From the NCBI RefSeq assembly GCF_032854445.1, contig NC_088295.1, forward strand, positions 28,628,498 to 28,692,497: a DNA stretch of 64,000 bases, written 5' to 3'. Positions 59,128-60,374 of the stretch are shown here, one piece after another. A model generated the notes under the pieces. That model was not told the DNA's origin. It did not search any database and worked only from the letters and a program-made list of their open reading frames with translations. The stretch comes from Liolophura sinensis. Lineage: Eukaryota. The position numbers were made by a program, and so were the translations under genes. Within the stretch, counting starts at the first letter, position 1, and each line of letters opens with the position of its first letter.

Positions 59128-59519
59128 ATCTAAGTGCTGTTCTAATGTTTCTTAATTAGACCATTTCGCTTCAACTGAAGAAATGGAAAATTAATGAAAC
59201 TGAGAACATTGCTGGTTTCGTTGCACTTGGCACTGTGGAATTATTAGAGGACTACTATTCATTCTTGTACATTTCAGTGTTAGCACAACTAGTTTTTTAA
59301 AATTTTAGTTTTTTATTATTTTTGAATTACAATATGGCCGAATGTTTGCAAAGGGAAACCATTTAACACACCTTATATATATATATATATATATATATAT
59401 ATATATATATATATATATATATATATATATATATATATATATATATATATATATATATATATATATATATATATATATATATATATATATACCCCATGTT
59501 ACCAAATAAGCAAACATAT
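59128..59519. repeat. Left arm of a near-perfect large inverted repeat (unique 247 bp + (TA)n 59375-59490 + 29-bp inner segment)
   Basis: The reverse complement of 59128-59374 matches 60131-60374 almost base for base. The inner segment accccatgttaccaaataagcaaacatat is mirrored at 60035-60063. Confidence 0.92.
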
Positions 59520-60034
59520 TTTTGGAAAGAAAGTGTATGTAGTTAAGTCATATCTACAGAGCGACATTTATTTGGTGTTTCAAGCTATAATGTGTTCTGT
59601 AGGAAATGAAATGAGCAGTTATGCAGAGTTGCCTTTCTCAAATTCCAGAACTGACCATAAAATCTGAACCATAAGTTATAGGTATAGTATACAACCAAGC
59701 ACACACTACCACCCAAATCTAAATGAGGCAGTGTGTGTATTTGATTTGCTTGCGTAAGAAGCTTGACATTCACGAATGAATATTTGCAAAGGTTGACAGG
59801 TAAAACCGCTGGGCAAAATAAAGCGCCGTATCAATACCACATAATCCTGTATCTTGACACTTGGTCATGTGAGTTAAATCACGTGATTTGATCAGCTAGG
59901 CACCGTCACGAGTTGATAATTCCGCACACACAAAACCATCCACTTACTAACTGCTGTCATAGATTCACCTGACATTGAGATAATAGTCTCACTAAGGACA
60001 AGTATTCAAGTAGAAAACGTAACTATATATATAT

Positions 60035-60374
60035 ATATATTTGCTTATTTGGTAACATGGGGTATATATATATATATATATATATATATATATATATATA
60101 TATATATATATATATATATATATATATATAAGGTGTGTTAAATGGTTTCCCTTTGCAAACATTCGGCCATATTGTAATTCAAAAATAATAAAAAACTAAA
60201 ATTTTAAAAACTAATTGTGCTAACACTGAAATGTACAAGAATGAATAGTAGTCCTCTAATAATTCCACAGTGCCAAGTGCAACGAAACCAGCAATGTTCT
60301 CAGTTTCATTAATTTTCCATTTCTTCAGTTGAAGCGAAATGGTCTAATTAAGAAACATTAGAACAGCACTTAAG
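60035..60374. repeat. Right arm of the inverted repeat (inner 29 bp + (TA)n 60064-60130 + 244 bp)
   Basis: See the left arm. The two arms flank a unique core of about 510 bp (59520-60034). Confidence 0.92.

Follow-up and report, generated by a model that had tools for sequence, protein, structure and literature searches.

A probable young, lineage-specific inverted duplication, most likely a template-switch product, downstream of a predicted NR2E1-type receptor gene in Liolophura sinensis

About 2 kb downstream of a predicted tailless/NR2E1-type nuclear receptor gene of Liolophura sinensis lies a foldback of some 1.2 kb, in which two near-identical inverted arms flank a spacer. We consider it likely that this structure arose recently, in one lineage, as an inverted duplication of native intergenic DNA, left most probably by one switch-and-return error of DNA synthesis (a template-switch mutation, or FoSTeS/MMBIR). 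As such it is a new instance of an already known type of mutation, unusually long and clean. It would offer a datable product of long template switching, 333 bp copied over a 525-bp spacer, with breakpoints in TA-rich, cruciform-prone sequence. All positions given here are counted from the first letter of the window, the whole 64-kb stretch of DNA that was analysed.

The window has a G+C content of about 39% and is eukaryotic. Three exons of the receptor gene were recognised by Pfam upstream of the foldback:

43848-44090, + strand: zf-C4 exon of the nuclear receptor
55469-55804, + strand: Hormone_recep exon of the nuclear receptor
56811-57056, + strand: last coding exon of the nuclear receptor, covering Hormone_recep profile positions 158-212 of 213, its ORF ending at a stop codon

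Homologues of this receptor carry the names NR2E1 or photoreceptor-specific nuclear receptor, and the best named relatives are from molluscs (Elysia, Octopus). By its predicted domains and homologues, the gene downstream of which the foldback sits is a real one of the tailless/NR2E1 type. Exact look-ups of two receptor exon ORFs in the protein collection returned no record, and the last exon, used as query, had no relative above 89% amino-acid identity in the searched collection. The stop codon ends at 57056 and the left arm begins 2075 bp further downstream, in agreement with the distance of 2 kb given by the first-pass annotation.

Gapped alignment and a repeat search delimited the inverted repeat at 59131-60372 as two arms around a 525-bp spacer. 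Its parts and junctions are listed below, with the TA tract sizes of both arms taken from TRF and a slash marking the junction where sequence is given:

59131-59514, 384 bp: left arm, composed of 243 bp of unique sequence, (TA)59 and the 23-mer CCCCATGTTACCAAATAAGCAAA
59131-59373, + strand: unique part of the left arm, 99.2% identical to the reverse complement of 60131-60372; putative donor, ancestral sequence
59374-59491, no strand: left-arm microsatellite (TA)59 (TRF, 59.0 copies, 100% match)
59492-59514, + strand: inner end of the left arm, the 23-mer CCCCATGTTACCAAATAAGCAAA, with an exact reverse-complement match at 60040-60062
59515-60039, + strand: spacer, the loop of the foldback, 525 bp; right part ancestral; single-copy in the window
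60024-60039: third, short TA tract, (TA)8, at the right end of the spacer and read within it
60035-60043, no strand: inner junction, where the (TA)8 of the spacer meets the inverted copy; ATAT microhomology with 59516-59519
60040-60372, - strand: right arm, 333 bp, the putatively derived reverse-complement copy of 59131-59514
60040-60062, 60063-60130 and 60131-60372: parts of the right arm, namely the reverse complement of the 23-mer, (TA)34, and 242 bp of unique sequence
60369-60377, no strand: outer junction, ...CACTTA/AGTTG in the window and ...TATATAG/AGTTG in the related contig L001 (see below); microhomology TA

The first-pass annotation had placed the foldback at 59128-60374, with near-identical arms of 340-390 bp, a (TA)n tract in each and a core of about 510 bp, and this description was essentially right. 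A single C/T substitution and a 1-bp indel (T6/T5) are all that separate the unique parts of the two arms. Their TA tracts, of 59 and 34 units, lie 25 units apart in length, a difference that is ordinary microsatellite slippage after duplication. Beyond its inner end, the 23-mer is followed by one mismatch and then by ATAT (59516-59519), which pairs with the right side; the pair returned by the repeat search accordingly extends to 59519/60035. The first-pass annotation had suggested a folding check: as single-stranded DNA, the region adopts a single long hairpin (minimum free energy, -423 kcal/mol). In a self-BLAST of the 64-kb window, the foldback was the sole long near-identical inverted repeat.

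The spacer contains no ORF longer than 62 aa, and the ORFs of the foldback, none longer than 70 aa, gave no Pfam match. A search of 57000-62000 against Rfam returned nothing above threshold; microRNA-like matches on the TA tracts, all sub-threshold, were rejected as low-complexity artefacts. The product is probably prone to hairpin or cruciform formation and without function. Were it transcribed, either because the receptor transcript extends that far at its 3' end or because a separate ncRNA starts downstream, it could in principle be a newborn hairpin-RNA locus. Its perfect dsRNA stem of ~243 bp, formed from native sequence by a single template switch, would give endo-siRNAs or an editing substrate acting in cis on a key neurodevelopmental regulator. 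We regard this as highly improbable; if true, it would provide a dated snapshot, with known ancestral state, of the birth of long hairpin-RNA genes or of a future MITE TIR scaffold.

Repeats of other kinds are found elsewhere in the window. Long microsatellites of the (AT)n type occur frequently, for example with 46.5 units at 24803 and with 38.5 units at 35953 (TRF). Upstream of the receptor gene, TRF located minisatellites with a 32-bp unit in 12 copies (6631-7020), and further ones at 31248-31456, 32012-32306 and 32488-33212, whose units measure 83 bp (2.5 copies), 48/77 bp, and 52 bp with a 26-bp sub-period (14 copies). Window self-BLAST recovered a dispersed family at 78-92% identity (14649-14890, 15350-15577, 19378-19615 and 27457-27539), with additional pairs at 15619-15790 versus 61070-60906 and 19624-19689 versus 61354-61419; these are presumably transposable-element remnants, unrelated to the arms. 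Just to the right of the foldback, a short dispersed repeat at 60614-60686, matched in inverted orientation at 18967-19038 (90%), starts with (GAGT)n and continues with GCTTGGGGTTTAACGCCGTACTTAAT. It has no relation to the arms, and we take it to resemble SINE-like repeats of molluscs.

The ancestral state of the locus was read from a relative. A protein search with the receptor exons led to P0050, 95% identical to one exon ORF, and the 11.1-kb contig that carries it (L001, from Logan run SRR26493809) is, judged by sequence, the orthologous locus of a related species. Within the receptor introns, window 49320-56418 aligned with L001 1-6961 at 85% identity. Further downstream, one HSP (window 57910-59312, L001 8670-9958) crosses the left edge of the repeat at 59131 without a break. 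The unique part of the left arm is orthologous to L001 about 9776-10010, collinear with the left flank, and in a three-way alignment L001 was homologous to the arm over its full unique length. The right part of the spacer, 59790-60034, matches L001 10107-10350 at 81% (with laxer scoring, 59687-60034 versus 10016-10350), and the right flank, 60395-60599, is next in order after the spacer at L001 10465-10671. Where the window has (TA)59, L001 has the proto-microsatellite CCGTATATAACC.

For the right arm, on the other hand, L001 offers no collinear counterpart; the arm's one match there is the left-arm orthologue, in reverse. No inverted repeat is present in L001 at the foldback site, and the downstream 1.1 kb of L001, compared with its own arm orthologue or with the right arm of the window, gave scores equal to those of shuffled sequence. 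The informative outgroup is one lineage, represented by L001 and a sister sample (SRR26493808) that is 97.7% identical to it, 2.4 kb long and ends short of the foldback. Three other relatives, L002 (GCA_029980185.1), L003 and L004 (ERZ25069296), align in the exons alone, at about 75%, and are uninformative for the foldback.

These alignments bear directly on an interpretation favoured by shape. The first-pass annotation had noted a resemblance to Foldback-like or MITE-type DNA transposons; on this reading the structure would be a non-autonomous element with long terminal inverted repeats, inserted at this site. The long TIR-like arms, the internal simple repeat and the non-coding middle do fit such an element, and TA stands at both outer edges, as it would for a Tc1/mariner or Stowaway TSD. 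The site in L001 is not empty, however: the left arm and the right part of the spacer are native there and collinear with both flanks, homology crosses the supposed left terminus, and the right arm alone is absent. The edge TA is palindromic and lies inside the repeat, and so carries no information. In composition, too, the arms consist of 243 bp of unique sequence and a dinucleotide microsatellite, with no subrepeat arrays, and Pfam recognised neither a transposase nor any other protein among the foldback ORFs.

Common MITE superfamilies have TSDs of TA, TWA or 8 bp. We scanned the outer edges systematically, allowing the boundaries to shift by up to 6 bp, and obtained no direct repeat of 6-12 bp, in keeping with the earlier remark that no TSD was evident; the scan yielded the palindromic TA and the 5-mer TAAGT only. 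As a 5-bp TSD, TAAGT was rejected: it overlaps the arm, is at chance level for the offsets scanned, and conflicts with the evidence from the orthologue. Foldback elements are described as having TIRs with tandem-repeat arrays, TSDs of 8-10 bp and several copies (PMC4079207), and a TSD of that kind is missing here.

Further copies were likewise missing from the data at hand. BLASTN (word size 7) of the arm, 23-mer, spacer and flanks against the window returned the two arms only; the other repeat families seen in the window self-BLAST are unrelated to the arms; and the five fetched loci held no copy of arm or spacer besides the L001 orthologue. Two arm motifs, made degenerate for both species, gave 0 matches in two exact-match scans of metagenome contigs and one of viral contigs; as this eukaryote is not expected in those collections, the negative carries little weight. 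With an occupied orthologous site, no TSD of 3-10 bp and a single locus in the available data, we rejected the Foldback/MITE identity and judge an inserted element very improbable. The case calls for caution in annotation: the superficial hallmarks of a Foldback or MITE element are present, yet comparison with an orthologue points to a one-step inverted duplication of native DNA.

When the right arm was deleted in silico, the window sequence GTAAC(TA)8/AGTTGCC aligned with GTAACCTTATATGTATGTCTTATATAG/AGTTGTAAAA of L001, so that ...GTAAC(TA)8/AGTTG... of the window stands against ...TATATAG/AGTTG... of its relative. Since the arm-removed window aligns across the junction, the right arm is a clean, lineage-specific insertion in a TA-rich site. 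Its absence from L001 is unlikely to reflect assembly collapse, because a short-read de Bruijn contig cannot run through A-B-C-D when a perfect B' stands between C and D.

The converse error, a right arm that does not exist in the genome of the organism and arose in sequencing or assembly, was given a small chance. Sequencing and assembly are difficult across long (TA)n tracts and inverted repeats, and the differences between the arms in the T6/T5 homopolymer and in TA length are typical of read errors. Foldback chimeric reads and MDA chimeras have the structures A-B-C-C'-B'-A' or A-B-C-B'-A'. Here the unique 525-bp spacer is kept and, past the inverted copy, the sequence rejoins the right flank expected from the orthologue, which makes an artefact unlikely, as two coincident artefactual switches would be needed; the arms also differ by a true substitution.

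Divergence between the arms is K = 0.0041 (1 substitution in 243 bp), while each arm lies at a Jukes-Cantor distance of 0.37-0.38 from the orthologue in L001. Arm-to-arm divergence is thus ~1% of arm-to-orthologue divergence, which, if no gene conversion took place, would place the duplication within approximately the most recent 1% of the period after the species split. At the single mismatch the left arm carries C, the same base as L001, which indicates that the left arm came first and that the right arm was copied from it. This polarity would follow from parsimony with one outgroup lineage.

Near-identity of arms may also arise by homogenisation. In sex-chromosome (Y-type) palindromes, the arms are kept alike by arm-to-arm gene conversion, and the present arms could accordingly belong to an ancient inverted repeat that pre-dates the split from the L001 species, was held near-identical by conversion, and lost its right arm in L001 through hairpin-stimulated deletion between flanking TA repeats. 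Arm identity of 99.2-99.6% does far exceed the ~70% identity between species in the same segment, as concerted evolution would give; TA on both sides of the right arm could mediate a precise slippage deletion; and the outgroup evidence comes from a single lineage. Such a history would nonetheless require a deletion in L001 exactly matching the arm boundaries, together with gene conversion sustained throughout a divergence of ~0.37 substitutions per site on a unique tract of just 243 bp. L001 retains no remnant of a right arm, and one recent insertion is more parsimonious. As in Y-type palindromes, arm identity exceeds that between the species, yet the related species lacks the second arm. We therefore think an ancient origin quite unlikely. 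The first-pass annotation had proposed either a very recent origin or ongoing homogenisation: the low K and the clean insertion relative to L001 uphold the former, and the lack of a second arm in L001 speaks against a palindrome maintained by conversion. Its alternative suggestion, an inverted duplication of recent date that could extrude a large cruciform, is favoured by that same lack, by the value of K and by the hairpin fold.

Other differences between the two species were observed at this locus. A window-specific block at 59380-59686, comprising (TA)59 and 195 bp of unique sequence, is absent at L001 10016-10022; bounded on both sides by GTATA/TATATA motifs, it is a second indel at a TA-rich site here. 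The TA-rich sites of the foldback locus appear to be indel hotspots. To the right of the outer junction, at window 60378-60395, ~100 bp of L001 (10365-10465) are missing, which may be a deletion that accompanied the duplication, making the event more complex, or an independent indel. The receptor introns are ~85% identical to L001, compared with 67-70% for the downstream intergenic DNA and 81% for the right part of the spacer, a pattern that suggests widespread non-coding constraint around the receptor gene.

Two oddities of the relatives concern the receptor gene itself. In the distant species L002 (contig JARPMW010001830.1), the LBD exons have two or three matches inside 8 kb (about 1900-2800, 5970-7911 and 7713-9792), with identical scores for the pair 1902-2782 and 7713-8593; this suggests a local duplication of the 3' half of the gene or an assembly duplication. 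In the receptor 3' region of L001, a recorded 186-residue "gene" at 7715-8275 (- strand) has four in-frame stops under code 11 and is a spurious call that apparently used another genetic code.

For the inverted duplication at the foldback, the preferred reading, the observations can be arranged into one event. The new segment, 60040-60372, is the reverse complement of a donor at 59131-59514, 525 bp away in the same locus, and both of its junctions sit in TA/ATAT sequence. In L001, the one outgroup lineage, the donor is present, the copy is absent, and the flanks are intact at the insertion point. Synthesis running from left to right would have stalled or broken in the TA-rich end of the spacer at about 60039, plausibly where replication was hindered by hairpin- or cruciform-forming TA tracts. 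The 3' end would then have found a new template around 59514-59519, on the complementary or the nascent strand, re-annealing there via ATAT/TA microhomology, and copying would have run back through the 23-mer, the (TA)n and the 243 bp of unique sequence to 59131. Rejoining the first template in that same TA-rich site, immediately ahead of AGTTG, would leave as net product a 333-bp reverse-complement insertion with a 525-bp spacer, in which the two TA tracts later diverged in length (59 versus 34 units). In four-point notation, point 1 would lie at ~60039 in (TA)8, point 2 at ~59514-59519, point 3 at 59131 and point 4 directly after point 1, giving the order 3-2-1-4.

Several points weigh against this reading. 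The 333-bp copy is large for the short-range class, whose known events are typically tens of bases long, and falls between that class and FoSTeS/MMBIR. The microhomologies at the switch points, ATAT at the inner and TA at the outer junction, amount to 2-4 nt in low-complexity TA sequence, and such matches are expected by chance in TA-rich DNA. The window also lacks about 100 bp of L001 to the right of the junction, and the informative outgroup is one lineage.

The proposed steps have precedents. In switch-and-return template switching, a neighbouring segment is copied as its reverse complement, and inverted repeats or hairpins arise de novo (PMC5453318; PMC8794818); in the four-point model, the fragment copied in this way is inserted at the point of departure (PMC5453318). 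MMBIR employs microhomology (PMC2621351), and an (AT)34 tract, Flex1, forms hairpins and cruciforms, interferes with replication and stimulates rearrangement (PMC12972899). The foldback site, a near neighbour of a developmental regulator, is likely unstable and deletion-prone and likely difficult to assemble.

The foldback can be set beside four kinds of known system. With the Drosophila foldback and MITE elements FB, Tetris and Galileo (PMC4079207), it shares a non-coding middle, a size of ~1.2 kb and long inverted arms with a tandem or simple repeat inside them; unlike them, it has no TSD, no further copies in the window or the fetched loci and no subrepeat arrays, and its arm and middle are native orthologous sequence. 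Its TA tracts, (TA)34 and (TA)59, equal or exceed the (AT)34 of Flex1 in FRA16D (PMC12972899), and all rearrangement junctions here are TA-rich; unlike Flex1, however, the tracts lie inside a much larger unique inverted repeat, and fragility would be by analogy.

FoSTeS/MMBIR (Hastings et al., 2009; PMC2621351) is similar in being, as proposed for the foldback, a replication-based, microhomology-mediated switch that yields inverted duplicated segments with non-recurrent breakpoints, for which stalling at structure-forming sequence is a plausible trigger. Those events usually span kilobases to megabases and are often complex (DUP-TRP/INV-DUP), whereas the foldback is sub-kilobase and simple, with microhomology that is just TA/ATAT in low-complexity sequence. 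Template-switch mutations (Loytynoja and Goldman, 2017, PMC5453318; Monttinen and Loytynoja, 2022, PMC8794818) differ in that the described events are short, and their authors do not model long-range or multiple switches, while here 333 bp were copied over a 525-bp spacer with a whole microsatellite included. The likenesses are these: one proposed event, a reverse-complement copy that gives a perfect inverted repeat or hairpin de novo, a donor a few hundred bases away, adjacent points of departure and return, and an ancestral state preserved in a related genome. In size, the foldback stands between the short template-switch mutations of primates and the kilobase-scale events of FoSTeS/MMBIR.
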